A stretch of DNA of 52,880 nt from Candidatus Pacearchaeota archaeon (GCA_017609885.1 JAFCDB010000013.1:1-52880), one strand, 5' to 3'. Positions 16,998-33,303 are shown, numbered from the stretch's first letter. Made by a program: numbers and translations. The notes: generated by a model from the letters alone, not told the origin.

Positions 16998-17492
16998 TTA
17001 TGCTCTTGAAATTGTCACAAGCTCATCTCTAATGTCTTTTTTAATTTCAATTGAAAATCCTCCCTCTTTATTTTCAATACAATAAGGATTTTCTGGGAGG
17101 TTTAAATTTATGTGTTCTATTTCTGCAGAGTCAATTTCTGCAAATCTCCGAGGGTAAAAATAAAAATTGTCCCTATAATCAACATTATTTGCTATATCTT
17201 CATATTGCTCTTTGTATTTTCCTTTTTGTTCTTGGATTGCGTTGTAAAAACAGATGTGAGTTATCTCACTTCCCCTTAGATTAAAATTAACTACTCTTTC
17301 CTCACCGCCTGATGATTTCCAAACTCTTTCTATTTCAAAATCTAAATCATTAATAAATGCGCCAGTCTCAACATTGTCTCTAATTCCAAGAAAAACATTA
17401 ATAACATAAAACGCCACCGTAATGAAAACTATAATTAAGATAATTGAAAAAATCATCCCAAATGAAAGTTGAAACTGCCCCCTTTTTTTCAT
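16998..17492 (-). CDS. Class III signal peptide (pilin-like) protein
   Basis: MKKRG|QFQLSFGMIFSIILII.. Confidence 0.75.
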   Translation of the reverse strand: MKKRGQFQLSFGMIFSIILIIVFITVAFYVINVFLGIRDNVETGAFINDLDFEIERVWKSSGGEERVVNFNLRGSEITHICFYNAIQEQKGKYKEQYEDIANNVDYRDNFYFYPRRFAEIDSAEIEHINLNLPENPYCIENKEGGFSIEIKKDIRDELVTISRA

Positions 17493-17553: not shown

Positions 17554-17609
17554 AAATGTTACGTTCAAACGTAACATTTATATAGTATATGTTACGTTAT
17601 ACTGTAACA
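17554..17609 (+). promoter_or_regulatory. Two related palindromic operators flanking a TATA box
   Basis: AAATGTTACGTT-CA-AACGTAACATTT (17554-17579), TTTATATA, then TGTTACGTTATACTGTAACA (17590-17609). Confidence 0.65.
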
Positions 17610-18902
17610 ATGGAAATTCAAAAACTAGCAGAATGGAATCCTTGGTGGGAGAGTAAAGAAATAATCAAAGATTTTTTAGGGAAGCCCAGGCCAGAATACA
17701 AATCACTTATAAATTCAACTGAAATAAAAGAAATTATTATAATTACTGGAATAAGGAGATCTGGAAAAAGCACTTTGATGTATCAAATGATTGAAAATCT
17801 GTTCAAAAAAGGAATATCCTCTAAACAGATTTTATTTATCAATTTAGAAGACAAAAAATTAACAAATGACTCACTAGAAGAGATTTACGAAGCTTACAAA
17901 CAAGAAATAAACCCCGATGAAAAAACATATATTTTTCTTGATGAAATTCATAAAAAACAGGGATGGGAATCGTGGATACGAAAAAAATATGATTTAAAAA
18001 CAAAAGACAAATTTATAATTTCAGGCTCTTGTTCATATTTGCTAAAAAAAGAATATTCTACTCTTCTTACTGGAAGAAACTTAACTTTTGAAATATTTCC
18101 TTTAGGTTTCAGAGAGTATCTTTTTTTTAAAAATATTGAAGTTAACAAAAACAGCATAAAAAAAGGATTAATACAAAATAAAACAAAATTTTTGATATTA
18201 AAAAATTTAAATGAATATCTGTATCTCGGAGGTTTTCCAGAAATAATAATAAAACAAAAAGAATATCAAATGAAAATATTAAAACAATATTTCGACGATA
18301 TTTTGTACAAAGACATAATAGATAGATATAATTTAAATCCTCAAAAATCAGAAGACCTTGCACTATTTTTAATAACAAACTTTACAAGTTTGATTTCACT
18401 AAGAAACACAAGAAATTCTTTAGATATGTCATACGATACAATTAAAAATTATCTGAGTTATTTTAAAGAAGCTTATTTATTTTTCATATTAAACAAATTT
18501 TCATATTCTTTTAAAGAGCAAAAATCAGTTGCTCCAAAAATTTATTGCATAGACAACGGATTGAGGAATGCTGTTTCATTTAAGTTTTCAAAAGATTATG
18601 GAAAACTTGCTGAAAATCTTGTTTTTGTTGAATTAAGAAGAAGAAATAAAAATATTTATTATTGGAAAGAAAAGTCAGAAGTAGATTTCGTAATTAAAAA
18701 CAGCGACCATACACTAAATGCAATAAAGGTTACATACAATGATGAGATTGACAAAAGAGAAATTCAGGGTTTGTTGAATTTTAAAAATAAATATAAAAAA
18801 TGCAGGGAATTAATATTAATAACAAAAAATTTAGAAAAAGAGGAAAAAATAGATAATAAAAAAATAAAATTTATTCCTTTGTGGAAATGGTTGCTTGAGT
18901 GA
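17610..18902 (+). CDS. AAA+ ATPase, COG1373 type (AAA_14 + DUF4143)
   Basis: NPWW, Walker A GIRRSGKS, Walker B FLDEIH, LTGR, GGFPE, K.Y..D.G, EN.V..EL, EVDF; likely start ATG 17610. Confidence 0.92.
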   Translation: MEIQKLAEWNPWWESKEIIKDFLGKPRPEYKSLINSTEIKEIIIITGIRRSGKSTLMYQMIENLFKKGISSKQILFINLEDKKLTNDSLEEIYEAYKQEINPDEKTYIFLDEIHKKQGWESWIRKKYDLKTKDKFIISGSCSYLLKKEYSTLLTGRNLTFEIFPLGFREYLFFKNIEVNKNSIKKGLIQNKTKFLILKNLNEYLYLGGFPEIIIKQKEYQMKILKQYFDDILYKDIIDRYNLNPQKSEDLALFLITNFTSLISLRNTRNSLDMSYDTIKNYLSYFKEAYLFFILNKFSYSFKEQKSVAPKIYCIDNGLRNAVSFKFSKDYGKLAENLVFVELRRRNKNIYYWKEKSEVDFVIKNSDHTLNAIKVTYNDEIDKREIQGLLNFKNKYKKCRELILITKNLEKEEKIDNKKIKFIPLWKWLLE

Positions 18903-19290
18903 GGGGAAAATTGCTCTGCTCCCAATCTCGCTCGCCCAATTAAATCCTTGTGACTCCCACTCGTGAGATTGCTCACCTTTGGCTCGGATTTTGAATTTTT
19001 CCCTCAGAGTTCGGGAAAAATTCCAGGGAAATAATCAAATTCATAAAATTCTTACTAAGATTTGTAGATTTGGTTTTCTTTAGTTTTGAATGAATGTAAT
19101 CTAAATCGTAGTGAATATTGTTCAATACATTAGCATTTTTCCCGCGGAGAATCTTTCTCGCAACCTGACTCGCCTTTCTTTCCTTGCAAATCTTTTGTAC
19201 CACTCGTCAAATTGCTCGCGAAGGTAGATTCGGAAGCAATTTCTATTTCTCTTCCCCTTCCCAAATTTCTCCAAAAAATTCCCATCAACA
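18900..19290. repeat. Composite of modular intergenic repeat blocks
   Basis: Contains inverted copies of the 9380-9506 blocks, a match to 136-159 (reverse complement) and GATTCGGAAGC shared with 45159. Confidence 0.7.
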
Positions 19291-19423
19291 GATTTTTAAA
19301 CCCTCAACATCTAATTTTTTCATGACAACTAAAATTTGGGGTTTTCCCCATCACACAGAATAAAGATTCTTCTAGTTGTGACTTTAGTAATGTTTTTATA
19401 TCTCACTTCTCTAATCTAAATAT

Positions 19424-19524
19424 GGCGGTTGTAGCTTAGTGGTTAAAGCGCACGGTTGTGGTGAGTTGTTATTAAACAAACTCGCAAATTCCGTGAGACG
19501 GGCGTTCGACTCTCCCCTTCCGCT
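19424..19524 (+). tRNA. tRNA-His(GTG) with encoded G-1 and 28-nt intron (19462-19489) at 37/38
   Basis: CACGG/CCGTG anticodon stem; canonical bulge-helix-bulge (TTGT:GCAA helix, GGT and ATT bulges, GAGTT:AACTC); stems carry three mismatches. Confidence 0.88.
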
Positions 19525-19530
19525 TTTGAA

Positions 19531-20712
19531 ATGAGTAAAATGAAAAACCAAACAGTAAAAGGATTTAAGGATTTCCAAGGAAAATCTACGCAAAAAAGAG
19601 TAGAAATAAGAAAAGTATTAGTTGAAACTTTCGAAACCTTCGGCTTTGAACCAGCTGAAACTCCAATTGTAGAATATGAAGAATTTGTAAAATCTGATAA
19701 TGAAAAAGACGAAGCAGTAAGTGACATTTTCAAATTAAAGGACAGAGGAAAAAGAAATCTTGCTTTGAGATACGAATTTACATTTCAGTTAAAGCGCCTG
19801 ATGAAAAATCAGAAACTGCCTTATAGAAGATATCAAATTGGCCCGGTTTTCCGCGACGAACCTGTGCAAAAAAATCGCTTGAGGCAATTCACCCAATGTG
19901 ACGCCGACATCATCAGTTCAAATACAAAAGAAGAAGCTGAAATTTTGTCTTTAGTAAAAACAATTTTTGAGGAATTAAATCTTAAACCAGAAATCTATGT
20001 AAACAACAGAAAATTGCTAAACGAAATTTTAGAAAAAGAAAAAATCAAAGACAAAAAACAAGTTATCAGAGAAATTGACAAATTAGACAAACTTCCTGAA
20101 TCAGAAGTTAAAAAGAATTTGGAGAAATATAATGCCAGAGCGATTTTAAAAATTTTCAAAAAACCAGAAAGCTATTTTAAAAAATTCGCCAGTTTCAAAG
20201 AAATCCAAGAACTAAAAAAATACTGCAAACTTTTCAATGTAAAAATAAATTTCTCGTCAAGTTTAGCTAGAGGTTTAAGTTATTATAATGGAAATATCTT
20301 TGAAATTAAATCAAAAGGAATGAAAGAAAGTATTTGCGCTGGCGGAAGTTACATGTTTAACAACATCCAATGCACAGGAGTTTCATTCGGCTTAGACAGA
20401 TTAGCAACAATTGTAAAACTTGATGAAAAGAAAAAAAAGATTTTAGTTATTTCAATAAATCAAGATAAAGAAGCAATTGATTTGATTAAAAAGTTGAGAG
20501 AAAATAAAATTTCTTGTATGGGATTTTTTGGCAAAACAGGAAAAGCACTTGAATATGCAAATTCTAAAGGTTTTGATTATGTTGTTTTTGTTGGAGAAAA
20601 AGAAATTAAGAGCAGGAAATTTACTTTGAGGGATATGGGGACGGGGAAGGAAAGGAAAGTTTCAGAAAAAGATTTAGTTAAAGGATTTAGAACCAGCGAA
20701 AAATTTAAATAA
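19531..20712 (+). CDS. hisS: Histidyl-tRNA synthetase
   Basis: VKGFKDF, LALRYEFT, FRDEP..RLRQFTQCD, ARGLSYY.G, GG.Y, G.SFGLDR, C-terminal anticodon-binding domain. Confidence 0.93.
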   Translation: MSKMKNQTVKGFKDFQGKSTQKRVEIRKVLVETFETFGFEPAETPIVEYEEFVKSDNEKDEAVSDIFKLKDRGKRNLALRYEFTFQLKRLMKNQKLPYRRYQIGPVFRDEPVQKNRLRQFTQCDADIISSNTKEEAEILSLVKTIFEELNLKPEIYVNNRKLLNEILEKEKIKDKKQVIREIDKLDKLPESEVKKNLEKYNARAILKIFKKPESYFKKFASFKEIQELKKYCKLFNVKINFSSSLARGLSYYNGNIFEIKSKGMKESICAGGSYMFNNIQCTGVSFGLDRLATIVKLDEKKKKILVISINQDKEAIDLIKKLRENKISCMGFFGKTGKALEYANSKGFDYVVFVGEKEIKSRKFTLRDMGTGKERKVSEKDLVKGFRTSEKFK

Positions 20713-20741
20713 TAGCAAGATTTCCATAATATAAGATAACA

Positions 20742-20804
20742 GGTATTGCCTTAAGTCTTCGGACATGCCGCAAGCGTGTTCCCTGCTATTACCTCGGTAA
20801 TACC
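20742..20804 (+). ncRNA. Putative structured RNA leader upstream of NYN gene remnant
   Basis: GGTATTGCC/GGTAATACC 9-bp closing stem enclosing GTC-TTCG-GAC and ACATGC-CGCAA-GCGTGT hairpins; GC-rich island in AT-rich spacer. Confidence 0.5.
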
Positions 20805-20816
20805 GGATTTATTAAA

Positions 20817-20930
20817 ATGATGAAAAGAATCTCTATTTATATTGATGGTGCTAATTTCGTTTATGGTTTGAAAACTTTGAACCCAAAAAAATTAAATCAT
20901 CTCAAAAATAAACCTTTCTATAGTTTTTAG
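20817..20930 (+). pseudogene. Truncated NYN (LabA/DUF88) nuclease N-terminus
   Basis: MMKRISIYIDGANFVYGL.. has the hhhhIDGxN first catalytic motif, then stops after 37 aa. Confidence 0.65.
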
Positions 20931-20978
20931 AAAATTTCAATAAATACCAACAAATTCATTTATTATTCAATTATCTTT

Positions 20979-22247
20979 CTATTTCACTCCCTCTAACATC
21001 CACTTCCAGATAGGTTTAACATTTATCTTTTTGTTGTTGGATACAATTTCTTTTTCCTGATCAAGTGTCAGGATTAATCCTTTCCTTAATTTAAACTTGT
21101 CCATTGCTTTTAGTAATCCCCTAATCTCTCGTTCTTCATTTTTCTCAGTTAATGTTTTTGTTACTTGTATCGCATTAACTATTTTATTCCTATCTTGAAT
21201 AATAAAATCACATTCTATTTTTGTTTCGTTTTCACGAAAGTAATATATGTCCAACATATCTTGTGCTCTTCTTTTTAGTTCTATTAACACAATGGTTTCA
21301 AGCAACCACCCTAAATTTTCTGAAAAAGCAAAAGAATTTGCAGAAAAAAAGCCAATATCATTAACATACGCTTTTTTAGGATTAACTTGTTGTTCTTTTA
21401 GTGAATAGCTATATTTTGGGACAAATATAATGAGTCCGATATCTTCAATATATGATAGATAATCAGATAATGCGTCTTTAGAAATTTTAGACATTTGTTT
21501 TACCATTCTATAATAAGAGTTTAATGAAAAATCTTTAGCAGTATTAGTTATTAAGAATTTTATTAGGTTCTTTAATAAACTTACATTGCGGAGGTTGTAT
21601 CTATCTATTAAATCTTTGTAAATTGTCAAATCTAAATAACTTTTCAATGTTTCAATTTTTAATTCTTCAAAAACTATTTCAGGAAACCCCCCATATTTTA
21701 AATACTCCCTAAATACTTTCTTTGTCCTGGAAGAACCTTGAGTAGTATACAAATCTTCTTCAATATCTTTGAAATTTAAGAATTCTTTGAATGATAAAGG
21801 ATAAATATAAAATGTCAAAGAACGACCTCTCAATTCTGTGGCAATCTCCTTGCTCATTAATTTTGCACTTGAGCCTGTTAAATAAATATTCGTTGTAATT
21901 GTATCATAAATTCTTCTAACAAATTTTTCCCAGTTTTTAATTTCTTGTATTTCATCAAAAAATATAGTTGGCTTTTTATCAGGGAATAATTCAAAATACG
22001 ATTGCAATATTAAATCTAATTCATCAGTTTTCATTGGAAGGATTCTCTCATCTTCAAAATTAATATAAAGGATTTCTTCTGAGTTCAATTCTTTCATTTT
22101 TTGAAACAACAAAAATGATTTACCGACTCTTCTCGGACCCACTAAGGTAATTATCTTATTTGTTTTAGGGAATTTGAAATCCCTATCTATAATATTTAAT
22201 CTTAATTTCTGATTTTCCAAAATTATTTTTTTTATTATTTCTTTCAT
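20979..22247 (-). CDS. AAA+ ATPase, COG1373 type (AAA_14 + DUF4143)
   Basis: GPRRVGKS, FFDEIQ, TGSSAKL..EIATELRGR, GGFPE, ECDF, AIQV. Confidence 0.92.
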   Translation of the reverse strand: MKEIIKKIILENQKLRLNIIDRDFKFPKTNKIITLVGPRRVGKSFLLFQKMKELNSEEILYINFEDERILPMKTDELDLILQSYFELFPDKKPTIFFDEIQEIKNWEKFVRRIYDTITTNIYLTGSSAKLMSKEIATELRGRSLTFYIYPLSFKEFLNFKDIEEDLYTTQGSSRTKKVFREYLKYGGFPEIVFEELKIETLKSYLDLTIYKDLIDRYNLRNVSLLKNLIKFLITNTAKDFSLNSYYRMVKQMSKISKDALSDYLSYIEDIGLIIFVPKYSYSLKEQQVNPKKAYVNDIGFFSANSFAFSENLGWLLETIVLIELKRRAQDMLDIYYFRENETKIECDFIIQDRNKIVNAIQVTKTLTEKNEEREIRGLLKAMDKFKLRKGLILTLDQEKEIVSNNKKINVKPIWKWMLEGVK

Positions 22248-22578: not shown

Positions 22579-24792
22579 TCACTCCCCAATCTCAACTGGC
22601 TTCACAATCATGCTACACTCAGTAGGCAGCGGTTGCTTCCCGCTGTCATCAACACATTTGATATAATATGCCTCATCAACTTCCCAAGGTGCAAAATGCT
22701 CTGTTAATTTGTCAGAAGATTCATGCATCATTTGTTCTACTATTGCATCTTCACCAATATTAAAGTCACATTTTGTATTATCATTTGTAGAGTAAAAACA
22801 ATCTGCGTTCTCGTTTGTAATTATTTGCAAAGAATCTACATTAAATAATACTCGAACAACTTCAGGCGCCTGCGTGTCTACAAAAACTGTGAAGGTTGTG
22901 TTTGTGCTTGCTTGGTTTCCGCCAAGGTCGACACATTTTATGTAGTAAGTGTAGGTTCCTGCTGGAAGATACTGCGATTGTTTGTGTTCAAAAGAATTTG
23001 TTTCTAGGAATTCAATAAAGTTTGAGTTGTCTAGACCATAATAACAGACAGATGTGCCTTTGTCATCTTCGCCATTCCGTGTTTCCAACTCCAAATTCAC
23101 TTCAACTGTTGTAGTCGCACCTCTTATTACTTCACCTTCTTTAGGTTTTAATGAATCATCTAAAATAGTTAATGGCTGTGTCCCTCTTAATGTCAATTTT
23201 CTTCCCTGGCTCATTTTATTCCTATCTGCTTTGTCCATCCATGGCTGGTCCTCACATCTAAAATAATAATCATTATCTTCTCTATCTACTATCCCTGTTA
23301 AAGTTCCTGAACAAGTATATAACATATTCGCATTCATCTCCCATAAATTATCTGCACACTCCATTATGTTTTCCATTGTATCAAAATTCAAATCATTGTC
23401 TCTTGTCCATCTGCAATTTGCAGGTTCGTTTGTGTAAACAACTATTGGAACTTCATCAACTTCATACTGCACTGGCGAGTTGTCTGCAATACTAAATTCT
23501 TCAATTATTGGAGCTGTTGCATCTGGGCCTTTGTCAACACAAAACTTCATAACATAAGGTTCTGCATTGTAGTAACCGTTTGGACTAACACATCTAATAT
23601 ATAACTCATATCTTCCGTCATTTTCAATTTCCAGACCACCTGTTTCTGTTTGATTTGTTGAATCAGCAAAATCATTAATTGCATCAGGACTTGGAAGGTT
23701 CATTCTCTGAGTGTGATTGTAAGCAAAAAGCGAAGACTCTCCAAAATAATATTCCATGTCGTCGTATCCTGCTGGTTCATATGCCTGAGCCCCATGCCCT
23801 ACTGTAGGAACAATATCAATTTTGCATTGTGCCGGCATATTTGTCTGAATTCCAAATTCAATTGGCGTAAATGCCTCAATACATCTTCCTGTAATTCCCT
23901 GCCTTATAATTTGCGCTCCCCGCGACAAAGGCCTCTGAGACATCGGCTTGTAATCATAACCATCTGTAAGAACATCTTCCCAAGGCCGAATCCCAGGAGA
24001 TTTCACATTTCCCTCATATAAATCCGCGCACATTTCACTTTCAGTCCCCTCATTTAAAATCCCACATCCCTGCCCTAAACTCTTGCACCTATACTCCGAG
24101 CACGCATGTAACTCATCATTGCACTTTTCACAATCACTTCCACCTATTGGAGCTTCCCAAGGTTGACAATCGAAAGTTATTGTTTTATATTCTACTTCTT
24201 TGTATGTTAAGGCGAAGACAACTACTCCGACAACTGCTCCTGTGAGGAATGCGTGGCTTCCAAAAAATCCTTTAATCGCTTCACTTCTTAAAACACCAGC
24301 AGTAAACAATCCTGAAGAAACTCCCCATTGCAAACTATTTGTCAAAGGTTCTTCTAATCCTAACCAACCACCTACAAGTCCAACTACCATATAGGCTGTT
24401 GTTGCCCAGCTTAGTCCTTGCAATATTCCGCCGCCGATTCTTTTGGGTTTTGCGAATATAGAAAATAGTCCTCTTTCCCCAGTTTCAGTAGTTGTTTCAG
24501 TTCCAAAACCAGGGTCGGGTAAATCTTTGACAGTTACAGATGGATCAACAGGGGTATTGCTAACAGTTGGATTTTTCTTTATTTCATCTTGTAAGTGTTT
24601 ATTCCATAATTGACTGGCTTCTTCATCTGTCATAGATTCAGTATTAAACTGTCCTGCAGGAGTGAAGTCCCCTACTTCAGCACTAACAACTTCAACCTCC
24701 AGTCCAATCAAAAAACTAATTGCAACAATTGACAAAATCAAATTCACAACTACAAACAAACATTCACTCTTTTTCAAGTTTTCTTTTTTCAT
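22579..24792 (-). CDS. Secreted Cys-rich protein with Gly-rich hydrophobic helices and Ig-like repeats; paralog of C-half of 28395-32078
   Basis: Own signal peptide; shared motifs CS.YRC.SLG..CG..NEGTE, CI.AFTP..FG, FCV..GPD.TAP, C.DQPW. Confidence 0.8.
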   Translation of the reverse strand: MKKENLKKSECLFVVVNLILSIVAISFLIGLEVEVVSAEVGDFTPAGQFNTESMTDEEASQLWNKHLQDEIKKNPTVSNTPVDPSVTVKDLPDPGFGTETTTETGERGLFSIFAKPKRIGGGILQGLSWATTAYMVVGLVGGWLGLEEPLTNSLQWGVSSGLFTAGVLRSEAIKGFFGSHAFLTGAVVGVVVFALTYKEVEYKTITFDCQPWEAPIGGSDCEKCNDELHACSEYRCKSLGQGCGILNEGTESEMCADLYEGNVKSPGIRPWEDVLTDGYDYKPMSQRPLSRGAQIIRQGITGRCIEAFTPIEFGIQTNMPAQCKIDIVPTVGHGAQAYEPAGYDDMEYYFGESSLFAYNHTQRMNLPSPDAINDFADSTNQTETGGLEIENDGRYELYIRCVSPNGYYNAEPYVMKFCVDKGPDATAPIIEEFSIADNSPVQYEVDEVPIVVYTNEPANCRWTRDNDLNFDTMENIMECADNLWEMNANMLYTCSGTLTGIVDREDNDYYFRCEDQPWMDKADRNKMSQGRKLTLRGTQPLTILDDSLKPKEGEVIRGATTTVEVNLELETRNGEDDKGTSVCYYGLDNSNFIEFLETNSFEHKQSQYLPAGTYTYYIKCVDLGGNQASTNTTFTVFVDTQAPEVVRVLFNVDSLQIITNENADCFYSTNDNTKCDFNIGEDAIVEQMMHESSDKLTEHFAPWEVDEAYYIKCVDDSGKQPLPTECSMIVKPVEIGE

Positions 24793-25227
24793 TTAATCAT
24801 CTTCTCCTGTTCTATTTTTTTGAACAAATGTTCTAATTTCTTGAACAAACTTCTCTGCTTTCTTAATCACTTCTTTAACATCACACTTCTCAATAATATT
24901 TACTTCTCTATAAACTACTATATTTCTCTTTTTTCTTACTTTATCAAAAAAATTAATCAATTCTTTATTAAGTTTTGTTTCTCGCAAAAACTCAAAAACT
25001 GATTTGTGTTGTTCGCTCCCTACTGGCTTAAATCCTAAACTAAACATCAATGTTCTTGCACTTTGCAACACAGCATTATATGCAATAGAATATGTCCAAT
25101 CATAATCTCCCTCTTCTAAAATATTTTTTGCAGTCCTTAAATCTCTCTCTGCCAAACTAAAGTCAGGTTCTTGTTTTATCAAGAGCTTTTTTATTTTCCT
25201 ATCCCTTAACAATTTTCCGAAGTTCAT
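24793..25227 (-). CDS. HEPN domain protein
   Basis: A..DL..A..IL..GDYDW....AYNA....AR, H in GSEQHK, R..RN...Y motif; overlaps the MNT gene. Confidence 0.88.
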   Translation of the reverse strand: MNFGKLLRDRKIKKLLIKQEPDFSLAERDLRTAKNILEEGDYDWTYSIAYNAVLQSARTLMFSLGFKPVGSEQHKSVFEFLRETKLNKELINFFDKVRKKRNIVVYREVNIIEKCDVKEVIKKAEKFVQEIRTFVQKNRTGEDD

Positions 25228-25765
25228 CTTCCTCTCCCTTTATCATGATTACTTTTCCAGCAAAAATTTCATTCATCAACCTATTATCTTTCTTTTTTTG
25301 GATACTTTTAATTGACCAAACAACTGGATTAATTTCTCTTCCTGTTTCTTCTTCTAATGGTTTGAATAACTTAAAAGTTTCAGACAACTTTACATTTCCA
25401 ATAATTAAAACATCAATATCACTTTCTGTATGGTAATCTCCCCGGGAAAAACTCCCAAAAACCAGCGCAAATTCTATTTTTTTATTTTTCTTCAGTAAAT
25501 CTTCTAGAGAGTAAACAATATAATCTGTTTTAACAAAAATACTTTTTAACTCATCAACAATGTTGTTCTTTCTATTTAATTTTATTTTATTTCCCTCTTT
25601 TTCTATCACACCAACACTCTCAAGATTATCAATCTCTCTCTTCACAGCACTTGAAGAAATTTTTAATTGATTAGAAATTTCTCTAATATGAGTTTCCTTG
25701 CTTTCAAAAAATAAATATTTCATTATTTTTATTCTGTTTTTTGATGTAAATATTTTTTCTAACAT
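25199..25765 (-). CDS. wHTH-fused minimal nucleotidyltransferase (MNT antitoxin)
   Basis: N-terminal ArsR-like HTH; FGSFSRG...SDIDV motif; likely start ATG 25765. Confidence 0.9.
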   Translation of the reverse strand: MLEKIFTSKNRIKIMKYLFFESKETHIREISNQLKISSSAVKREIDNLESVGVIEKEGNKIKLNRKNNIVDELKSIFVKTDYIVYSLEDLLKKNKKIEFALVFGSFSRGDYHTESDIDVLIIGNVKLSETFKLFKPLEEETGREINPVVWSIKSIQKKKDNRLMNEIFAGKVIMIKGEEDELRKIVKG

Positions 25766-25766
25766 T

Positions 25767-27572
25767 TTAACTCCCCTTAGCAAAGTTGTAAGCTTTGATT
25801 ATCATTCCTTGAACAACATTTCCTGCAGGCTGCGAACCTCTGAAAGTTTCCTCTCCAGTTTGCTGCGCCCCCCCAAATTCCTGGCTTTGTGATTGCGGTG
25901 CTTCTTCTCTTTCATCGCCAACTTGAGTTTCTTTTCCCCCTTTAATTTTTATTTCATAACCCTCATTTACAAATTTTCCGACATAATTTGCCCCTGGACC
26001 GCAGTCTCCCAAAGACGAACAATAAAACATTGCAGCTAATGCAGTTTTCTTTGATTCAGGATTATCCGGGTCGCAGAAGCAGTTTTCTACGCATTTTTTT
26101 TCTCCTCCAATTGCTCGCTTTTCATATTTTACAATACATGTCTGCGTTCCTGCCATGCAAACATCCTGCGCATTTTCACTCCAGAAATCCAAACCCGGTG
26201 CAACTTTCGGAACACACTTTCCATAAGATTCCTGGTCTTCAATCTGCACATTAAACAACTCTGCTTTTACAGTGTCAATATCCAGCATATTTCTAATTGC
26301 ATTGTCAACTCTTCCTTTTTCATCAATCGGCAACCAGATGCAATCTCTTTGATAGCGGTTCAAACAATCTCTTGTCTTATTCTGCAAAATACAATCCTGC
26401 CACCGATTCACAATACATCCTGCCTGAGAAAAATCCTCTCCCTCTGTTTCAATTGCATCTTCAACACAAACCTCGTTCCTAAAATCCCCGCATGGTTCAA
26501 CAATTTCCTCACCCATATAACAAATATGTCTGTAATGCCTTGAACCAACAGAATCTGCATTTTGATTTCCATTGTCATAGTAGCACCACGACTCGCCGTT
26601 TTTGTAGTCCTCGCCATTTGAAGTATCATAGCAATTTACATCCTGGCAAATATAATCTCCATAAGCTGGTTTTTGTCCTCGGAGAGCTTCTGCGCAAATT
26701 GTCCCCTGCCCAAGATATTCACAATTACCACAACCTCTTGGTGAACCATGACAACTTTCCTCTGGATGTTTTATCTTTGTCCAATAAGCTGCACTATTTA
26801 ATTTACTTGCGTCATAAATATTCGCCCTATTTCCGCAAGTATCAACAAAATAAACCCGGCCATTTTCACATCTTGTTTCCTGTGTTTTTGCACAATCTGT
26901 CTCCAGCTCTTCTGCGGTGCACAAATAATCTTTATAAAATCTTATTGATTCCTGATCTGAAACTTGCTCACCAAGTTCTGCAGAATCACACTCATCTCGT
27001 GTTCCAAATCTGCAGGTTTTCACAAATTCTGATTCAAATACGCATGCCCCAAAATCCTGCGAAGTTGCAAGAGCAATACATGAAAGTTCATCAGCTACAT
27101 CTGTCCTGAAATTTGTCTGCAACCCATAAATTCCAGAAAGTTTCTTGCATCTTTGCAAAGTTACATAAGCTGCTTCTGTTCCAAGTAAACAACAGCCCAT
27201 ATTACATCGAGGAATCTGGCAGTTTGCGTTTTCCTCCCATGAGCCGTTTGCAGCTGAACATGCTTCTTCAGGCGTATTTTCCATGCAAATTCCTTCGTCG
27301 CTGTCATAACAACATCCCTTTTTACAATAACTTGTTGCCTCGCATGAAGTAGGGCTTACTTTAAAATTTGCATCGCAATTTTCCTCTGGCTCATTTTGGC
27401 AATAAGCTCCTGTCAGGGTTTTCTCACAGCAAAAACTCACTTCCTGCGCAGAAACAAACACTCCTAAAACTACTAAACAAATTATCACAAGCAAAATTCC
27501 TGCAGCTATTTTTTCCCTCTTTGTCATTTTTCCTCTTACACTTTCTTGGTTTTTATTTTTATATGTTCTCAT
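25767..27572 (-). CDS. Secreted Cys-rich protein; paralog of N-half of 28395-32078
   Basis: Signal peptide; NGESWC.YD, VGSRH.R..C..GE..VEPC.D.R.E.CVE, C.SLGDCG...NYVGK shared with the large protein. Confidence 0.8.
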   Translation of the reverse strand: MRTYKNKNQESVRGKMTKREKIAAGILLVIICLVVLGVFVSAQEVSFCCEKTLTGAYCQNEPEENCDANFKVSPTSCEATSYCKKGCCYDSDEGICMENTPEEACSAANGSWEENANCQIPRCNMGCCLLGTEAAYVTLQRCKKLSGIYGLQTNFRTDVADELSCIALATSQDFGACVFESEFVKTCRFGTRDECDSAELGEQVSDQESIRFYKDYLCTAEELETDCAKTQETRCENGRVYFVDTCGNRANIYDASKLNSAAYWTKIKHPEESCHGSPRGCGNCEYLGQGTICAEALRGQKPAYGDYICQDVNCYDTSNGEDYKNGESWCYYDNGNQNADSVGSRHYRHICYMGEEIVEPCGDFRNEVCVEDAIETEGEDFSQAGCIVNRWQDCILQNKTRDCLNRYQRDCIWLPIDEKGRVDNAIRNMLDIDTVKAELFNVQIEDQESYGKCVPKVAPGLDFWSENAQDVCMAGTQTCIVKYEKRAIGGEKKCVENCFCDPDNPESKKTALAAMFYCSSLGDCGPGANYVGKFVNEGYEIKIKGGKETQVGDEREEAPQSQSQEFGGAQQTGEETFRGSQPAGNVVQGMIIKAYNFAKGS

Positions 27573-27573
27573 T

Positions 27574-28350
27574 TTACCTCAACCCATATCCTGGCGGAAA
27601 CACCAAACTTTTCGAAGCAAAATTAAATTCCTCTTCTATATTTCTGTCTGAAACAAAATACAAAGTCGTTCCATCTCCCTGTTTTAATTTTTGTATTCTC
27701 ATCTCAGGATACAATAGCATGTAAACATCAACATCTGTATCTCCATACCTTGCCTCATAATTTAATATTGAAGTTGACAACATTATCAATTCATACAATT
27801 TACTTTCTTTTCTAATTTCAAATCCATCAAACACCCTCCTGTCATCCTCTTTTGAAATTGTCAAACCAGTATCAATATCAACTATCAAATTTCCATAAGC
27901 TAAATCAATGGAATAATCAAATCCCCGCGACTCAACATTATATCCTCTTTTTTCTGCCTCTTCTTTTGCATCTTCAAAACAACCCTGCACATTAGGTTTT
28001 ATTTCCATTTCAATCTCACTTTCAACATGTTGAATTAAAAGAGGGTTTTGAATATAGCATGTTTCAAAGTCCACAGATGACTTGCACAAATAAGCCAACT
28101 TCACTCCTTGATACAAAAAATAATCTTTTGGTTCCATATATCCTCCCTGCCTTGCAATCTGCGAAATCTTCATGTTTATATTTTCTCCTTCAATGCAAGC
28201 TTCTAAATTATCTTTAAAATCAAATTCTCCACCTGTAAAAATATTTGGAAGATTAATAACATCTGTTGCTATTAAAATAATAAGGATAGCTACAGCTACA
28301 ATTACAACTCCGATTATTATAAAAATTGCAATCTGCCCCTTTTTATTCAT
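27574..28350 (-). CDS. Class III signal peptide (pilin-like) protein, paralog of 32327-33136
   Basis: MNKKG|QIAIFIIIG; shared GGY, YLC and C.F.D motifs. Confidence 0.8.
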   Translation of the reverse strand: MNKKGQIAIFIIIGVVIVAVAILIILIATDVINLPNIFTGGEFDFKDNLEACIEGENINMKISQIARQGGYMEPKDYFLYQGVKLAYLCKSSVDFETCYIQNPLLIQHVESEIEMEIKPNVQGCFEDAKEEAEKRGYNVESRGFDYSIDLAYGNLIVDIDTGLTISKEDDRRVFDGFEIRKESKLYELIMLSTSILNYEARYGDTDVDVYMLLYPEMRIQKLKQGDGTTLYFVSDRNIEEEFNFASKSLVFPPGYGLR

Positions 28351-28394
28351 TTTCTTGTTCACCTTATTAACATATCTTGATTTATAAATTTTGA

Positions 28395-31300
28395 CTATGC
28401 AATTGAATCATCTGGCTGAACAATTATCGAGCATCCAGAAAATCTGTTGCTCCAATTATCCTCACAGATAATATAATGTGTAACATCAGATTCCCAAATA
28501 GTAGTATGAATTTTCGAATTTTCTCCATTCATCAAATTCGCGTTTTGCAAATTAAAATTGCACCCCCATCTTGAATCTGTATTAAAATAACATCTTGAAT
28601 CTTCATTTGTAACAACAACTAAATTCCCAGAATCATGATAAACCCTTGTCACCTCAGGCCCAATTTCGTCTAATTCTAAACTAAATGAACTTTCTTTTTC
28701 TGCGAAATTCCCCACAGCATCATTGCATTTAACCTCAAATTCATAATCTCCTTTTGTCATGCTTGCTAAAATATGCCGATGATTATTGTCCCAAGTTTCT
28801 GAAAATCTGTCTGAAAATCCCTGCTCTTTAAATTCATATGAACAGCTCGCATTACCATTGTCAACTCCGCCAGAAGTTTCAACCCTCAACTCAACACTAA
28901 TCGGCTCTGTTCCTCGAGTAATAGTTTCATTAGGTTCAATTGAATCTATCTTCAATTCAAACTCACTCTTTTTCAAATTATATTCGTAAACTCCTCCTAA
29001 CTCTGCCCCAATATTTCTCGAACTATTTTCCCCTAACCAAGGCTGGTCCCTGCATAAAATATAATAGCTATTTTCATTTTCTTCAACAGGCAAATTTGCA
29101 GAGCATGAATAACCTAATATTGTTCCTGAATTAACATTTGTCTCACACTCCATTTCATTTTCTAAATATCTATATGCTTCTAACATGTCTCCTGTTATCG
29201 GTCTTATAACATCCCATTTGCACTCTGCAGGTTCATTTACAAAAATAATTGTCTCCTGTTCTGTTGCATTTACAGGAAGAATCGCACCATCTGCAGGCAT
29301 CGTTAGAGTTACAACAGGAGCAGTTCTGTCAGGCCCCGGAGCAACACAAAAATTAATTTGATAATCATGATCATTTTCAATACCATTTATATTCGCGCAC
29401 TTCACATAAAAATTCAACTCCCCAACTTGGTCAAGCAAATATTCATGAATTGTGTCTCCAATATGCTGCTCGATATCATCATCAAAAATCCCCATGTCCT
29501 CTGCATTTTCCTCAGTTATTTCTGCCTCCATCAATTCCTCAAATTCTTCAGGTGTGCTTACTTGAGATGCAATTAAACTCTCAGCACTTGGAAGATAAGT
29601 TGCGTAGGTGTGATTTTTTGTAAGAACATTTCTCTCAAAAAAATAACTCCAATCACTTTCTTCAAAATCTCGTTCCTGTGAAATTCTGCATTGGGCGTAG
29701 ACATCTGTTTCAACTCCAAATATTAAAGGAGTAAATGCCTGAATGCAGTTTCCGTTACTATCTCTGACTTCAAAACCATTTGTAGTTTCAGATTGATATC
29801 TAAACAAACTCCTGTTTAAAATTTCTTCCCAAGGACTTATTGTTGGAATGTTGTCCTCATTGTTGATACTTGCGCAAACTCCATATTCAGTTCCCTCATT
29901 TATCATTCCACAATTCATTCCTAAACTTTCACAGCGATATTTTGAACATGGCTTCATAGGATTTTCATTGCACTTTTTGCAGTTTCCCATAAACGGCCGC
30001 TGCCAAGTTTTGCAGTCAAAAGAGATTTCTACAATTTCTGTTTTCCCGCACCCCATTGCATACATTGCTCCCATAACAATAACTGCTCCAAGTACAGCAA
30101 AACCCAAGGGAGTTGCACCTATGAAAATTCCGCCAATAGAAAGTCCTGAATAAGTTGCTCCTGCTCCAAATAATCCTGCTCCTCCGGCAAGTATCCCTCC
30201 AACTGCCCCAACTCCTGCCCCAATTCCTGCACCAGTTAAAGTACTCCCCAACTGATCCCCAAACATATTCCCTAACTGACTCCCCTCCTCAAAATCCCCA
30301 AAACTTGCATAACCTGATAAAAAAGAATCTGCCATTCCTAAAGGTAAACTTAAAATTGACTCCACACTATCATATCCTCCTGGTTTTGCATGCTGTCCTC
30401 TAACTGCAATTGCAAGAACAGCATACAAAGGAGCAAAAAATGCAGGCGGAGGAGGACGATGCCCATGCGAACCTTTTTTTGAAACACTCGCCCCGAAAAA
30501 TGTCGGCTTTCCAACATAATTAATATAAGCTCCGCAATCTCCTAAACTCGCACACAAATTATTCATCTGCGCTGTAAATCCTGCATTCATACAATTGCAA
30601 TTTTCAACACATGTCCATCCTCCAGGACATTTTTTTACAAACATAACACTACAAGTTTTTGAAGCCAACCCACAAACATTGTTTGCGCTTGTTCCACCAC
30701 CAAACCCTCCAAGCCCTCCTGCAATATCTCCAAATTCCCCTAACACTCCTAAATCTCCCAATGCATCTCCTGCAATTCCTCCTGCAACTCCTACCAAGCC
30801 ACTTGTACTTTCTAAATCAAAACCAGGAGGATATTTTGGAACACACATATTAAATTTAAATTCACTATCAACAAAAATTGGTTGAATACTGCAATCAGGA
30901 TTTAATGCACATTTTGCCATGCATCCTGGCCCGCAATCACCTCCAGAATTCGCAGCAACACACTGCTCCCAAGTATTTACTCTACACATTGCATTATTAA
31001 TTTTCCTAATCCCTTCAACTTCTTTTTCATCCTCGACACAAATTTCCTTTCTGTAATCTGCGCAAGGTTCTACTTTCACCTCTCCATTAACACAAGCATA
31101 TCTAAAATGCCTGCTTCCAACAGGGTCAACACTCAAAGCACCTATACTTCCAATTCCTAAGTTTCCTATTTGCCCGTCGTAAACACACCATGACTCTCCA
31201 TTTATCCTGTCTTTTTTTCTTCCTGCATGTCCTGGCGCATCATCACAATTCAAATCTCTGCAAGTGAAACCTTCCATATTTCCTTTGTCTCCTGCTCCAA

Positions 31301-32078
31301 ACTCTCTGCAAATACTTCCTAACTCATAATTGCAATTTCCACAGCTTGATGAACGCGAATTTGCTGAATTAGGATTGCATGAGTCCTGCTTTGACAAAAC
31401 TTTTCCCTCATTCCACGAGTTTAATTTATTTGAAGAATAAATATTCTCTCTATTTCCGCAACTGTCAAACCAATAGATTTCTTCCTCACCTTCAATACAA
31501 CCTGCTGATTTTTGTTTTTCACAAATAGTATTTAATTCTTCATTAGAACATAAATAACCTTCATGAAAATATTGTAAATCATTTGTTATACTCAAACATT
31601 CGGTTTTTGTCGTGAACTTGCAATTGTTTGTTTCTTCATATGGAATTGGAATAACACACGCTCCTATTTCTCCTGAATCAACAACTGCCATGCACTCCAA
31701 GTCATCTTCTATTGAAGGGTCCCAGTTTCCAGGAGTTCCGAAAAGTTCTGATAATTTCTCGCATCTTCTCTGCGTGACAAATTGCGTATTTAATCCTAAT
31801 GAACAGCAGCCAATTCTGCACGCACCAACCTGACACAGCGGATCATCAAACCAACTTCCTCCTGCTACTTGACAATTTTCCTCAACAACATTTGGGTCGC
31901 AAAGCCCCTCATCCCCATCAAAACAACATCCTAATTCTTCTTCAGATGTTCCTAATGCTCCCACCATTTCAAAATCTCCAACAATAAAAGCAAATGCAAA
32001 AATCCCCAAAACCAAAATCCCAATTTCAAACAGCGACCCTATTTTCTTTTCCAAATTTTTATTTTTCATTTCTGCCAT
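28395..32078 (-). CDS. Giant (~1230 aa) Cys-rich surface protein with central Gly-zipper hydrophobic region and C-terminal Ig-like repeats
   Basis: Start moved to ATG 32078 because the tracked start overlaps a tRNA; signal-like helix, dozens of Cys, GAGIGAGVGAVGGILAGGAGLFG block. Confidence 0.8.
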   Translation of the reverse strand: MAEMKNKNLEKKIGSLFEIGILVLGIFAFAFIVGDFEMVGALGTSEEELGCCFDGDEGLCDPNVVEENCQVAGGSWFDDPLCQVGACRIGCCSLGLNTQFVTQRRCEKLSELFGTPGNWDPSIEDDLECMAVVDSGEIGACVIPIPYEETNNCKFTTKTECLSITNDLQYFHEGYLCSNEELNTICEKQKSAGCIEGEEEIYWFDSCGNRENIYSSNKLNSWNEGKVLSKQDSCNPNSANSRSSSCGNCNYELGSICREFGAGDKGNMEGFTCRDLNCDDAPGHAGRKKDRINGESWCVYDGQIGNLGIGSIGALSVDPVGSRHFRYACVNGEVKVEPCADYRKEICVEDEKEVEGIRKINNAMCRVNTWEQCVAANSGGDCGPGCMAKCALNPDCSIQPIFVDSEFKFNMCVPKYPPGFDLESTSGLVGVAGGIAGDALGDLGVLGEFGDIAGGLGGFGGGTSANNVCGLASKTCSVMFVKKCPGGWTCVENCNCMNAGFTAQMNNLCASLGDCGAYINYVGKPTFFGASVSKKGSHGHRPPPPAFFAPLYAVLAIAVRGQHAKPGGYDSVESILSLPLGMADSFLSGYASFGDFEEGSQLGNMFGDQLGSTLTGAGIGAGVGAVGGILAGGAGLFGAGATYSGLSIGGIFIGATPLGFAVLGAVIVMGAMYAMGCGKTEIVEISFDCKTWQRPFMGNCKKCNENPMKPCSKYRCESLGMNCGMINEGTEYGVCASINNEDNIPTISPWEEILNRSLFRYQSETTNGFEVRDSNGNCIQAFTPLIFGVETDVYAQCRISQERDFEESDWSYFFERNVLTKNHTYATYLPSAESLIASQVSTPEEFEELMEAEITEENAEDMGIFDDDIEQHIGDTIHEYLLDQVGELNFYVKCANINGIENDHDYQINFCVAPGPDRTAPVVTLTMPADGAILPVNATEQETIIFVNEPAECKWDVIRPITGDMLEAYRYLENEMECETNVNSGTILGYSCSANLPVEENENSYYILCRDQPWLGENSSRNIGAELGGVYEYNLKKSEFELKIDSIEPNETITRGTEPISVELRVETSGGVDNGNASCSYEFKEQGFSDRFSETWDNNHRHILASMTKGDYEFEVKCNDAVGNFAEKESSFSLELDEIGPEVTRVYHDSGNLVVVTNEDSRCYFNTDSRWGCNFNLQNANLMNGENSKIHTTIWESDVTHYIICEDNWSNRFSGCSIIVQPDDSIA

Positions 32079-32105
32079 TTTATTGAAATTCGAGAGATTT
32101 GTAGG

Positions 32106-32187
32106 CGCCTCGGCCGGGACTCGAACCCGGACACCGGTGAAGGTCTCGCGCATCAGGCGAGTGCATTACCCTTAATGCTACCGAGGC
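32106..32187 (-). tRNA. Atypical tRNA, anticodon GAT (nominally Ile), long variable arm, G73
   Basis: GCCTCGG/CCGAGGC, GCAT/ATGC, CTCGC-CTGATGC-GCGAG, 14-nt variable region, CCGGG-TTCGAGT-CCCGG; all stems perfectly paired. Confidence 0.85.
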
Positions 32188-32326
32188 ACTTTCTACACCT
32201 CTAACCAAAAAATTTATATAGTTAGTGAAATTAAATATATTATATCCGGTGAAGATATGCATTGCTCTTGATGCTACATTAATCGTAGCATTTTTCTTTT
32301 TTATTATTAAATTTATTTCTATCATT

Positions 32327-33136
32327 TTACCTTGGAGTATTTAACACACACCCTCTTACTGCAAATCTAATTTCCCTTCCATCTCTCAAATCTTTAATTG
32401 TATAAATTTTATTATCATTTCCGGTATTGAATTTGTCAATATCTGCCCAGGTATTTGCTCTCATTAAATTAAGATATTCTGAATTGCAGTAAATAGATTC
32501 CTGCCTCAAAATTTCCTGAATCAAAATTGCCAAATCATAAATCGAACTTTCAAATTCTGCTTCAAAAATATCAAACTCTAACCGCCTGCCAGATTTTCTG
32601 ATATGAATTTCCTTTTCCATAAAAGTCCTTACCTTCCCAGGAACAATCTCAACACTCGAGTTCAATTCAGGAGAAAAATCAACAGAATAATGCTGTTCCT
32701 CTAAAATATTTTCAAAATCATCAAAACAATCTTTAATTCTCTCATCAATAAATCCATAAATTTCATCTTCTAAATGTTTGTCAAAAAGTGGCTCAATAGT
32801 ATTACATCTTGCATAATTCCTAGGCGTAAAGCAAAGATAAGGCACATTCAAATATGTCCCCTGCAAATGATAGCCACTCGGATAGGAAAAATTCCTTGAC
32901 AACTCTGAAGCTCGAATATATCCCCCATTTTCAATAATCTTTTCAACAGCTGTTTCAACATATTCATTAACACACTGCTCAATAAATCCTTCAGGGTCTT
33001 CACCAGGATCAATTACAGGGTCTGGAACAAGAACCCGATTATACAAAAAAAACAACAAAATAACTGCAGCAACTATTAAAATTCCCACAATTACAAAAAT
33101 CGCGATTTGTCCTTTTTTATTTATTTTACCAACCAT
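32327..33136 (-). CDS. Class III signal peptide (pilin-like) protein
   Basis: INKKG|QIAIFVIVG + hydrophobic helix. Confidence 0.8.
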   Translation of the reverse strand: MVGKINKKGQIAIFVIVGILIVAAVILLFFLYNRVLVPDPVIDPGEDPEGFIEQCVNEYVETAVEKIIENGGYIRASELSRNFSYPSGYHLQGTYLNVPYLCFTPRNYARCNTIEPLFDKHLEDEIYGFIDERIKDCFDDFENILEEQHYSVDFSPELNSSVEIVPGKVRTFMEKEIHIRKSGRRLEFDIFEAEFESSIYDLAILIQEILRQESIYCNSEYLNLMRANTWADIDKFNTGNDNKIYTIKDLRDGREIRFAVRGCVLNTPR

Positions 33137-33303
33137 AAATTCACCCCCAATTTTTTTATTCTTTCTGCTTTTCCCTCGACAACTAATTCTAATAGATATT
33201 TATCTGCAGTATTCCAGGAAATCCTAAAATGTTTTGCAATCTCAGAACTAGTTACAACCCTTTCTTTTTTCACAAACTCTTTTATTTTACTATGAATATC
33301 CAT
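33121..33303 (-). CDS. Small winged-helix DNA-binding protein heading the pilin-like operon
   Basis: 'VTSSEIAKHF.ISWNTA.KYL.EL..EG...R.K.G..NLW'; overlaps next gene; upstream near-palindrome TTATCTTATAGGATAA. Confidence 0.75.
   Translation of the reverse strand: MDIHSKIKEFVKKERVVTSSEIAKHFRISWNTADKYLLELVVEGKAERIKKLGVNLWLVK

Follow-up and report, generated by a model that had tools for sequence, protein, structure and literature searches.

We analysed a window of 52,880 nucleotides (nt) of DNA from Candidatus Pacearchaeota archaeon (GCA_017609885.1, JAFCDB010000013.1:1-52880; coordinates are counted from its first letter), and in particular the gene cassette located between positions 22579 and 33303, in which genes for two small pilin-like proteins, A1 and A2, stand next to genes for large cysteine-rich proteins. 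We found that this cassette is a real, ancient and unnamed envelope system of the kind in which pilin-like subunits are accompanied by a large partner. Its gene content, its conservation, the co-duplication of its parts, the signal motif of the pilin-like proteins, the presence of pilus-type machinery in the genome, the predicted folds and the predicted interface between A2 and the 601-amino acid (aa) protein encoded beside it were all established directly. The more specific reading, according to which the cassette encodes a lineage-specific envelope complex of Pacearchaeota-type DPANN archaea, formed by two anciently duplicated surface complexes and working with type IV pilus-like machinery, has in our judgement about an even chance of being correct.

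The window had previously been annotated from its sequence alone, and that original prediction proposed a single co-oriented run of genes for a winged helix-turn-helix (wHTH) protein, A1, a tRNA, a giant protein, A2, a 601-aa protein, MNT and HEPN proteins and a 737-aa protein. Every one of these features was located, all of them on the minus strand. The open reading frame (ORF) of the giant protein extends in full from 28395 to 32153 (-) and runs into the tRNA; therefore its likely start is at 32078, which gives a protein of 1227 aa (28395-32078, -), called here BIG1, very near to the predicted size of about 1230 aa and as rich in cysteine as proposed (64 Cys). The database copy of the same protein has 1224 aa. 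Residues 1-545 of BIG1 aligned with the 601-aa protein (33% identity, E 3e-78) and residues 623-1222 with the 737-aa protein (31% identity, E 2e-73), indicating that, as judged from these alignments, the giant protein is a fusion of a 601-like and a 737-like part. Since its two halves match the 601-aa and 737-aa proteins, the cassette holds two modules, one fused and one split: module 1 consists of A1 and the fused BIG1 (N part, transmembrane part and C part), and module 2 consists of A2 and two separate proteins, BIG2-N (601 aa; 25767-27572, -) and BIG2-C (737 aa; 22579-24792, -), with the MNT-HEPN genes between them. The proposal of a duplicated unit of one pilin-like and one giant protein had thus to be corrected in this respect. 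No further copies of either module were detected by tblastn in the organism's own genome (750 kb, 89% complete), which contains only these two.

Homology and hydropathy divided BIG1 into an N ectodomain, a hydrophobic Gly-rich block and a C ectodomain. The protein bears an N-terminal hydrophobic segment (aa 16-34), and hydropathy peaks were found at aa 619-641 and 651-669. These peaks fall in the central Gly-rich block, a putative membrane hairpin, which had been placed at about 30060-30250 and which we observed at aa 614-672 (30063-30239, -). A second Gly-rich block, expected at about 30690-30800, was seen at aa 427-465 (30684-30800); it is an insertion that the 601-aa paralog does not have. 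No hydrophobic segment was present beyond aa 669, in agreement with the absence of a C-terminal anchor noted earlier. BIG2-N showed an N-terminal hydrophobic segment only and 46 Cys, and BIG2-C, with 22 Cys, had its own N-terminal segment and, further on, a hydrophobic region that stops at aa 195. Dozens of cysteines were invariant in the 96-sequence alignments of the large proteins. A haem-binding (multihaem or metal-cluster) role for them was considered and rejected, as the C-half fragment of the giant protein (aa 560-1227) contained no CxxCH motif and a single CxxC. A lipobox preceding the C ectodomain was also rejected as a family feature: the helix that ends in GCGK (aa 669-676, about 30050-30075) does so in the window protein and its closest relatives, and [GAS]C was found at this place in 20 of the 75 fused homologs and in none of the 24 split C proteins.

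The pilin-like proteins A1 (pil1; 269 aa; 32327-33136, -) and A2 (pil2; 262 aa; 27574-28362, -) were paralogous, as had been stated, with 30% identity and an E value of 2e-21. Trees of the pilin-like proteins (sequences shorter than 200 aa omitted) and of the N and C domains (10 fragments omitted) were compared. In the pilin-like tree one clade, with support of 1.0, took in 58 of the 59 genes located ahead of a split N gene, against 2 of the 71 located ahead of a fused gene; A2 belongs to this clade, as the partner in the split module, and A1 falls in the group found before the fused gene. Likewise, a clade of the N-domain tree (support 1.0) gathered 61/71 N-only proteins and 2/77 fused ones, and a clade of the C-domain tree (support 1.0) gathered 37/39 C-only proteins and 2/77 fused ones; these clades support BIG2-N and BIG2-C as paralogs of the N and C halves of BIG1. 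The agreement among the three trees implied that the pilin-like subunit, the N part and the C part were duplicated together, before the lineages split, and that both sets were retained; on this phylogenetic ground the duplication is a joint and ancient one.

Homologs of the giant protein were numerous, with at least 491 at E<=0.001 among 8000 scored candidates. Those listed were mostly 1100-1400 aa long, came from metagenome-assembled genomes of Pacearchaeota or Nanoarchaeota, shared 35-55% identity over 1200 aa and, where named, were nearly all called 'hypothetical'. At least 542 of the 600 pattern matches listed (one genome per species) encoded a relative of the giant. We then compared 80 loci with their 10-kb flanks, from genomes labelled Pacearchaeota or Woesearchaeota. 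The genes were always co-oriented, in the order [wHTH], pilin-like, fused BIG, pilin-like, BIG-N, a variable gap and BIG-C. A fused ORF of at least 1000 aa was present in 72 of the 80 loci; a co-oriented pilin-like gene preceded it in 60 of the 61 loci with at least 1.5 kb upstream, and, where more than 3 kb was available downstream (55 loci), a second pilin-like gene followed it in 53, after which another large gene of the family came in 51 of those 53. The linkage of pilin-like and large Cys-rich genes that had been suggested from one locus is consequently a general one. The pil2 and BIG-N genes overlapped by 4 nt in many loci, and in the window the stop of A2 lies only 1 nt from the start of the 601-aa gene. 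The number of homologs and the gene order kept in the 80 loci exclude chance as the origin of the pattern.

The same gene order was flanked by two different chromosomal contexts, one of them being PCNA and primase, as in the window, which argues that the cassette moves as a unit. With a threshold of E<=1e-10, a BIG match was found in 154 of the 401 genomes of a sample of the phylum. It was present in 26 of the 27 genomes of the family to which the window belongs and in nearly all the genomes of some other families; in three other families of the same class, f6, f17 and f14, it was found in 0/29, 0/13 and 3/42 genomes, respectively. The origin of the cassette in a mobile element or a virus was considered and discarded, given the conserved chromosomal flanks of two types, the occurrence in 26/27 genomes of the family and the single cassette in the organism's own genome.

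The N-termini of A1 and A2 had been read as class III signal peptides. An N-terminus of the [KR][KR][GAS]/Q type (the slash standing for the cut) is the class III signal-peptide pattern of the archaeal pilin literature. Taking as the criterion a short basic leader with G, A or S at position -1, followed by about 20 hydrophobic residues, we found the motif [KR][KR][GAS]/Q[VI][TA]IF with its hydrophobic run in 142 of the 144 members of the A1/A2 family, so that this reading applies to practically the whole family. Position -1 was occupied by G (108), A (21) or S (13), and position -2 by R (67) or K (60). Two members did not conform: one begins at a contig edge and the other has a Pro in the hydrophobic stretch. 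In A1 the motif, KKG/QIAIF, is followed by a globular domain of about 230 aa.

The genes that a prepilin-type protein would depend on were searched for in the organism's own genome, and all the expected kinds, prepilin peptidase, assembly ATPase and platform protein, were encoded there above the Pfam cut-offs: a Peptidase_A24 (PF01478, 48 bits, contig C26), two T2SSE ATPases (PF00437, 112 and 50 bits, contigs C21 and C7) and two T2SSF platform matches (PF00482, 64 and 58 bits, contig C31). The genome encodes about 25-40 proteins with class III-like N-termini (39 candidates by a loose pattern). Four of its small proteins (136-191 aa), encoded together on contig 19 (1437-4016), have N-termini of the form KG/VSxxIATVLLI, which we take to be PilA-type, and they are probably the ordinary pilins of the organism. 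On contig 34 (15634-17493; L086:2635-4494, -) there is a 619-aa protein with the N-terminus KRG/QIAIFVII, the same as that of A1 and A2, and the gene after it is an ORF of 879 aa or more; Pfam gave no match for either of them, and they may be a third pair of a small and a large protein, of another family. On contig 21 the T2SSE ATPase gene is immediately preceded by a gene for a Peptidase_C25-like protein (L088:24-1523, +).

A2 and the 601-aa protein were chosen for the modelling of a complex because of their conserved adjacency, their co-duplication and their overlapping stop and start. Residues 34-262 of A2 and 41-560 of the 601-aa protein were modelled from 48-row alignments. The interface score ipSAE was 0.80, 0.80 and 0.81, and the best of three controls gave 0.00. 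The mark used for this score was attained by 58 of 80 solved complexes and by 2 of 110 mismatched pairs, a calibration that is approximate since our own alignments were used here. The models had 144-174 contacts, with at least 80% agreement of contacts between runs, and the predicted local distance difference test (pLDDT) was at least 83 for the partner and 84 for A2. On the A2 side the predicted interface comprised aa 93-97, 100-108, 200-205, 212-229 and 255-258. It holds the family-invariant residues C93, C102, Q105, P107 and E203, whose conservation is thus explained without catalysis. We know of no similar complex, and for this reason the model is unlikely to echo a memorised solved structure. 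These predictions support the binding of A2 to the 601-aa ectodomain.

The N half of BIG1, modelled with AlphaFold2 on the alignments made in this analysis, gave a pLDDT of 86.2 and a predicted template modelling score (pTM) of 0.75. Its disulfide-rich ectodomain (aa 45-545; 30444-31946, -) found no structural counterpart: Foldseek returned no match at E<=1e-3 in PDB and none in BFVD, the best Z in a VIA-wide search was 4.5, mostly over the N-terminal helix, and that of a second VIA run was 4.6 (SIX6 and small disulfide modules of the FnI type, residues 277-395). Against the archaeal fusogen Fsx1 (7p4l) the Z was 4.5 over 56 residues, level with helix-only noise. As the half was searched as a whole, we describe this predicted structure as one with no match found rather than as a new fold. 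The C half gave a pLDDT of 83.7 and a pTM of 0.69, with values above 85 in the C ectodomain (28398-30053, -). The ordered part was modelled as a Cys-rich, membrane-proximal base followed by tandem sandwiches similar to immunoglobulin (Ig) and FN3 domains. Foldseek matched it to generic Ig/FN3 arrays (E 1e-13 to 1e-9) and VIA to single Ig/FN3 domains (Z 8-10), and the Ig-like C-terminal repeats first noticed in the sequence were in this way recovered as structure. Neither the AlphaFold2 models nor the Foldseek and VIA searches pointed to an ordinary, already characterised family of membrane proteins.

The Gly-rich block was the least conserved part of the giant protein and one of low complexity. 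In the 75 homologs that had both anchor motifs (of 94 examined), the linker had a median length of 209 aa (range 132-659) and 17% Gly. Because the domains on either side of it are Cys-rich and look secreted, the block would most simply cross the membrane an even number of times, forming a hairpin in the membrane of the cell itself. A hairpin of this kind fits better than a device inserted into a host, since the block is of low complexity, poorly conserved, modelled with low confidence and situated between two domains of secreted type.

The system was not recognised as a described one when it was first noticed, and the databases led us to the same opinion. For the giant, 601-aa and 737-aa proteins Pfam gave only sub-threshold matches to the beta-sandwich families Y_Y_Y, DUF4625 and Big_13, and NCBIfam gave nothing for 10 proteins, A1 and A2 among them. 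With PDB sequence profiles the best E was 0.075 for the pilin-like family, and there was none at E<=1 for the 601-aa family. In the ESM Atlas only unnamed archaeal clusters were seen among those listed. In a profile search of 1.84 billion representatives, a library that carries no names, 6540 proteins passed the threshold of E<=1e-3, 2320 that of E<=1e-10 and 577 that of E<=1e-30, and the 150 matches listed spanned 188-331 aa. The database names of the A1 relatives were all 'hypothetical'. Two of the giant's 120 listed relatives were oddly named, as cytochrome c oxidase subunit IV and GRP family sugar transporter, and we take these names to be mis-annotations. The families are not described in the accessible portions of the literature searched, including PMC13705601, PMC4858521, PMC8204110, PMC11537232 and PMC11329633, whose supplements (for example S10 Fig of PMC13705601, Supplementary Table 3 of PMC8204110 or the PMC11537232 proteome tables) may include these families without a name.

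The remaining genes of the run were less regularly associated with the cassette. The wHTH protein at its head (60 aa; 33121-33303, -) matched FeoC and FaeA at the Pfam cut-offs and other HTH families more weakly, and is likely a regulator; a co-oriented tblastn match to it was found upstream of the pilin-like gene in 27 of the 64 loci that had room for it. The tRNA between A1 and the giant gene (32106-32187, -; Rfam RF00005, 56.7 bits) has a GAU (Ile) anticodon loop and an 11-nt insertion in its variable region, and was detected by Rfam and missed by ARAGORN. As blastn gave no match to it in any of the 80 related loci, we place it outside the conserved cassette, as a lineage-specific insert. 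The MNT-type nucleotidyltransferase, which has an N-terminal HTH (25199-25783, -; Polbeta, 50.1 bits, and NTP_transf_2, 40.4 bits), and the HEPN-domain protein (24793-25227, -; PF05168, 55.4 bits) are encoded by adjacent genes overlapping by 29 nt, and all these matches were above the Pfam cut-offs. In this they resemble MNT-HEPN toxin-antitoxin pairs; no Rx4-6H motif was seen in the HEPN protein of the window. There were 43 loci in which both BIG2-N and BIG2-C could be seen, and the gap between the two genes had no intervening ORF in 11 of them, one or more fast-evolving lipoprotein-like genes in 24, MNT-HEPN in three (the window, L006 and L034) and other nucleotidyltransferase/HEPN-like pairs in two. 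Only 3/43 loci carrying MNT-HEPN at this place means that the pair is a secondary insertion and not a part of the system. The gap between the split N and C genes is an insertion hot spot, as seen in the window and in L006, L034, L060 and L071.

Downstream of the cassette there are four genes with class III-like N-termini, at 16998-17492, 16025-16996, 15534-16040 and 15034-15537 (all -), encoding proteins of 164, 323, 168 and 167 aa, respectively. The conserved N-termini of the four families are KRGQFQLSFGMIFS, KKGFEMSFAWIFA, KGQLKIQQMAFML and KKAQEEIVGFVLI. None of them had a Pfam or NCBIfam match and, going by these N-termini, we regard the four as candidate minor pilins. In relatives with the first type of flank, these four genes come directly after BIG-C. 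The 323-aa family was present in 26 of the 27 genomes of the window's family, in most of which its gene lies 0.5-2 kb beyond BIG-C, and in 254 of the 401 genomes of the phylum sample, a tally that includes four unpublished genomes. We do not call these four families paralogs of A1 and A2, because the similarity to the A1/A2 family detected by hhalign was only N-terminal or short (probability up to 90 over 43 columns).

In the window the cassette is separated from these four genes by a block at 17589-22247, in which a 393-aa ORF, presumably a histidyl-tRNA synthetase, and a tRNA found by Rfam and missed by ARAGORN (19425-19524, +) lie between the genes of two AAA_14/DUF4143 ATPases that are paralogs of each other (17589-18902, +, and 20979-22247, -); this tRNA probably holds an intron, since it is 100 nt long. 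Beyond the four genes, a 792-aa protein with a signal peptide (11796-14174, -) matched the S-layer family PF05124 with 26.5 bits, the cut-off being 23.9; it is likely the S-layer protein, and no C-terminal hydrophobic anchor was seen in its sequence. The giant, 601-aa and 737-aa proteins had no match to S-layer families in Pfam, and with a separate S-layer family protein encoded in the window, we set aside, as the main reading, the idea that BIG is itself the S-layer protein, retaining it only in the form of an anchor.

Taken together, these results make the following mechanism the most likely one. A1 and A2 would be exported, probably cut after KKG by the prepilin (class III) peptidase of the genome, and would stay held by their hydrophobic N-terminal helix. 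Each pilin-like subunit would have a large partner of its own, and its globular domain would clamp the partner's disulfide-rich N ectodomain. The partner would be fixed in the cell's own membrane through the Gly-rich hairpin and would project a Cys-rich base and a stalk of Ig domains outward, with a length sufficient to get to the S-layer or beyond it. A single polypeptide carries the N and C parts in module 1, and two genes encode them in module 2. The two paralogous sets would either be specialised variants of one surface complex or combine into a mixed one. The cassette would be functionally tied to the four neighbouring pilin-like genes and to the type IV pilus-like machinery, most likely as a fixed or pilus-associated structure for contact or adhesion. 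Cleavage, topology, surface display and the role in adhesion are all things that we infer. A host-contact role is plausible, and adhesion or contact would be the most natural role for a structure like this in an organism of this kind. As to the original interpretation, the pairing of pilin-like with large proteins stood, through their linkage, their co-duplication and the predicted binding of A2 to the 601-aa protein, and so did the connection with pilus machinery, and none of the three observations named beforehand as refuting it was made; the count of modules did not stand, and an adhesin or effector function, host contact and insertion into a host membrane would be candidate roles at most.

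Several observations weigh against this reading of a pilin-linked surface complex. The peptidase, ATPase and platform genes all lie on other contigs, outside the cassette and the window. Among the Pfam pilin models there was no family at E<=0.1 for A1 or A2, nor was there a pilin family at E<=1 among the 25 listed of the 63 Pfam families matched by 48 members of the A1/A2 family, and it is from the N-terminus and the machinery, rather than from a fold, that the label 'pilin-like' is drawn. The complex of A2 with the 601-aa protein is a prediction and not a measurement. In the Gly-rich block a single helix (aa 657-674) stood out from a model whose pLDDT was otherwise about 30, homologs differed in how many hydrophobic segments their linker had, and the hairpin topology is a guess made from hydropathy. 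The degree of conservation of the giant protein is unusual for adhesins that track a host. Finally, no match to a VKOR-type disulfide oxidoreductase was found in the organism's own genome, which at 89% completeness is not proof of absence.

The conservation just mentioned would speak for another reading, in which the large proteins are housekeeping spacers or anchors between the membrane and the S-layer and have no role in host contact. Their Ig stalk would cross the pseudo-periplasm, and the pilin-like subunits would serve as membrane-anchored stators, like FlaF and FlaG of the archaellum. The near-universal presence of BIG in the window's family (26/27), its stable, housekeeping chromosomal context and the S-layer family protein (PF05124) encoded about 8 kb downstream on the same strand are all in favour of such a scaffold, and Ig-like arrays are typical of archaeal envelope proteins. 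However, BIG is absent or rare in the f6, f17 and f14 families of the same class, and two conserved paralogous sets with a 500-aa disulfide-rich head exceed the needs of a spacer, so that we consider this scaffold unlikely.

Other features suggested that the 601-aa protein might become soluble once its signal peptide is cleaved. A2 would then carry it at a filament tip, in the manner of bacterial PilY1/PilC with minor pilins; the four minor-pilin-like proteins encoded downstream would prime this type IV filament, and the fused paralog would be a version tethered to the membrane. The 601-aa protein has an N-terminal hydrophobic segment only, followed by VSA/Q; its gene is translationally coupled to that of A2, with which it is predicted to bind; four pilin-like genes of unequal size come directly after the cassette in the window's family, and the core pilus machinery is present in the genome. 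The internal hydrophobic blocks of BIG1 and the 737-aa protein should nevertheless retain these proteins in the membrane, and the 323-aa family is far wider than BIG (254 vs 154 of 401 genomes), which argues that BIG is an add-on and not a core part of a tip. We therefore hold the filament-tip arrangement to be quite improbable.

A bolder version of the surface complex would make the cassette an undescribed, DPANN-specific machine for cell-to-cell contact, with two paralogous spikes, each having a prepilin-anchored disulfide-rich head and an Ig stalk, which would be assembled with the type IV pilus machinery and would recognise or breach the host envelope, the hairpin perhaps engaging a membrane. 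We are very doubtful of this version as a whole. Still more doubtful is a device whose Gly-zipper hairpin is stored and then inserted in the host membrane to anchor the symbiont or open a bridge, for, in spite of the Gly-rich hydrophobic block between two ectodomains, the dependence of DPANN archaea on cell contact (PMC11329633) and the unmatched N-domain fold, no other part is so poorly conserved or modelled with so little confidence as the block, which sets it apart from pore-forming hairpins and fusion peptides, the sole match to an archaeal fusogen (Fsx1) was at noise level, and the split C paralog keeps a signal-like segment together with the block, as expected for insertion into its own membrane during synthesis.

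With the lineage-specific surface complex as the preferred reading, the cassette provides concrete candidates for the attachment of Pacearchaeota and Woesearchaeota to hosts or surfaces. In groundwater and sediments, few uncultured archaea are as abundant as these two groups. The cassette also offers protein families without a name, an ectodomain of about 500 aa without a structural match and a testable predicted interface between a prepilin-like and a giant-type protein, and the fused and split versions of the same complex, side by side, should be useful for working out domain contacts. If the role were structural, the cassette would represent a new component of the archaeal envelope and would add to the substrates known for the class III signal peptidase; if the contact machine were real, the apparatus by which the uncultured Pacearchaeota and Woesearchaeota attach, long sought, would have been found.

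Among known systems, the archaellum has the stators FlaF and FlaG, small proteins that combine a hydrophobic N-terminus of pilin-like type with an ectodomain rich in beta structure and that hold the machine to the S-layer. A1 and A2 are similar to them in size and in their N-terminus, and differ in having no Pfam match and in their predicted partner, which is a giant Cys-rich protein and not the S-layer. Archaeal S-layer proteins made of Ig-like domains, and the stalk arrangement of SlaA and SlaB, are large, secreted and anchored to the membrane. The large proteins described here share with them secretion, strings of Ig-like domains and membrane anchoring, whereas the S-layer family protein of the window is the product of another gene, and BIG has a disulfide-rich head, an anchor that is central and not terminal, and a distribution from which many related families are missing.

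Closer likenesses were found in loci where pilin-type proteins accompany large ones. In the bacterial minor-pilin/PilY1 (PilC) tip complexes (10.1101/2023.07.22.550172, PMC13711793), proteins with prepilin-type leaders are found beside a very large non-pilin surface protein, and here too several pilin-like proteins stand beside a very large protein that is predicted to bind a pilin-like subunit. In contrast to PilY1, our searches gave no sequence or fold match, with no Pfam family above the cut-off and, in fold searches with whole halves, only Ig/FN3 arrays among the matches listed, all of them to the C half; moreover, the large proteins have internal hydrophobic blocks, 22-64 cysteines and a conserved pair of fused and split paralogs, in an archaeon with a single membrane. 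The methanococcal loci for Epd-type pili combine class III signal-peptide proteins with two large DUF2341 proteins proposed as pilus adhesins (Makarova et al. 2016, PMC4858521). They resemble the cassette as archaeal loci in which proteins with such signal peptides are associated with large proteins, and differ from it because no DUF2341 or other Pfam domain was found here and the ATPase and TadC genes lie outside the cassette locus. The lack of a shared domain, the internal membrane segments, the many cysteines and the fused/split pair without counterpart led us to assign the cassette to neither of these two kinds; by analogy, it nonetheless seems to work most like the minor-pilin/PilY1 tip complexes and the Epd loci.

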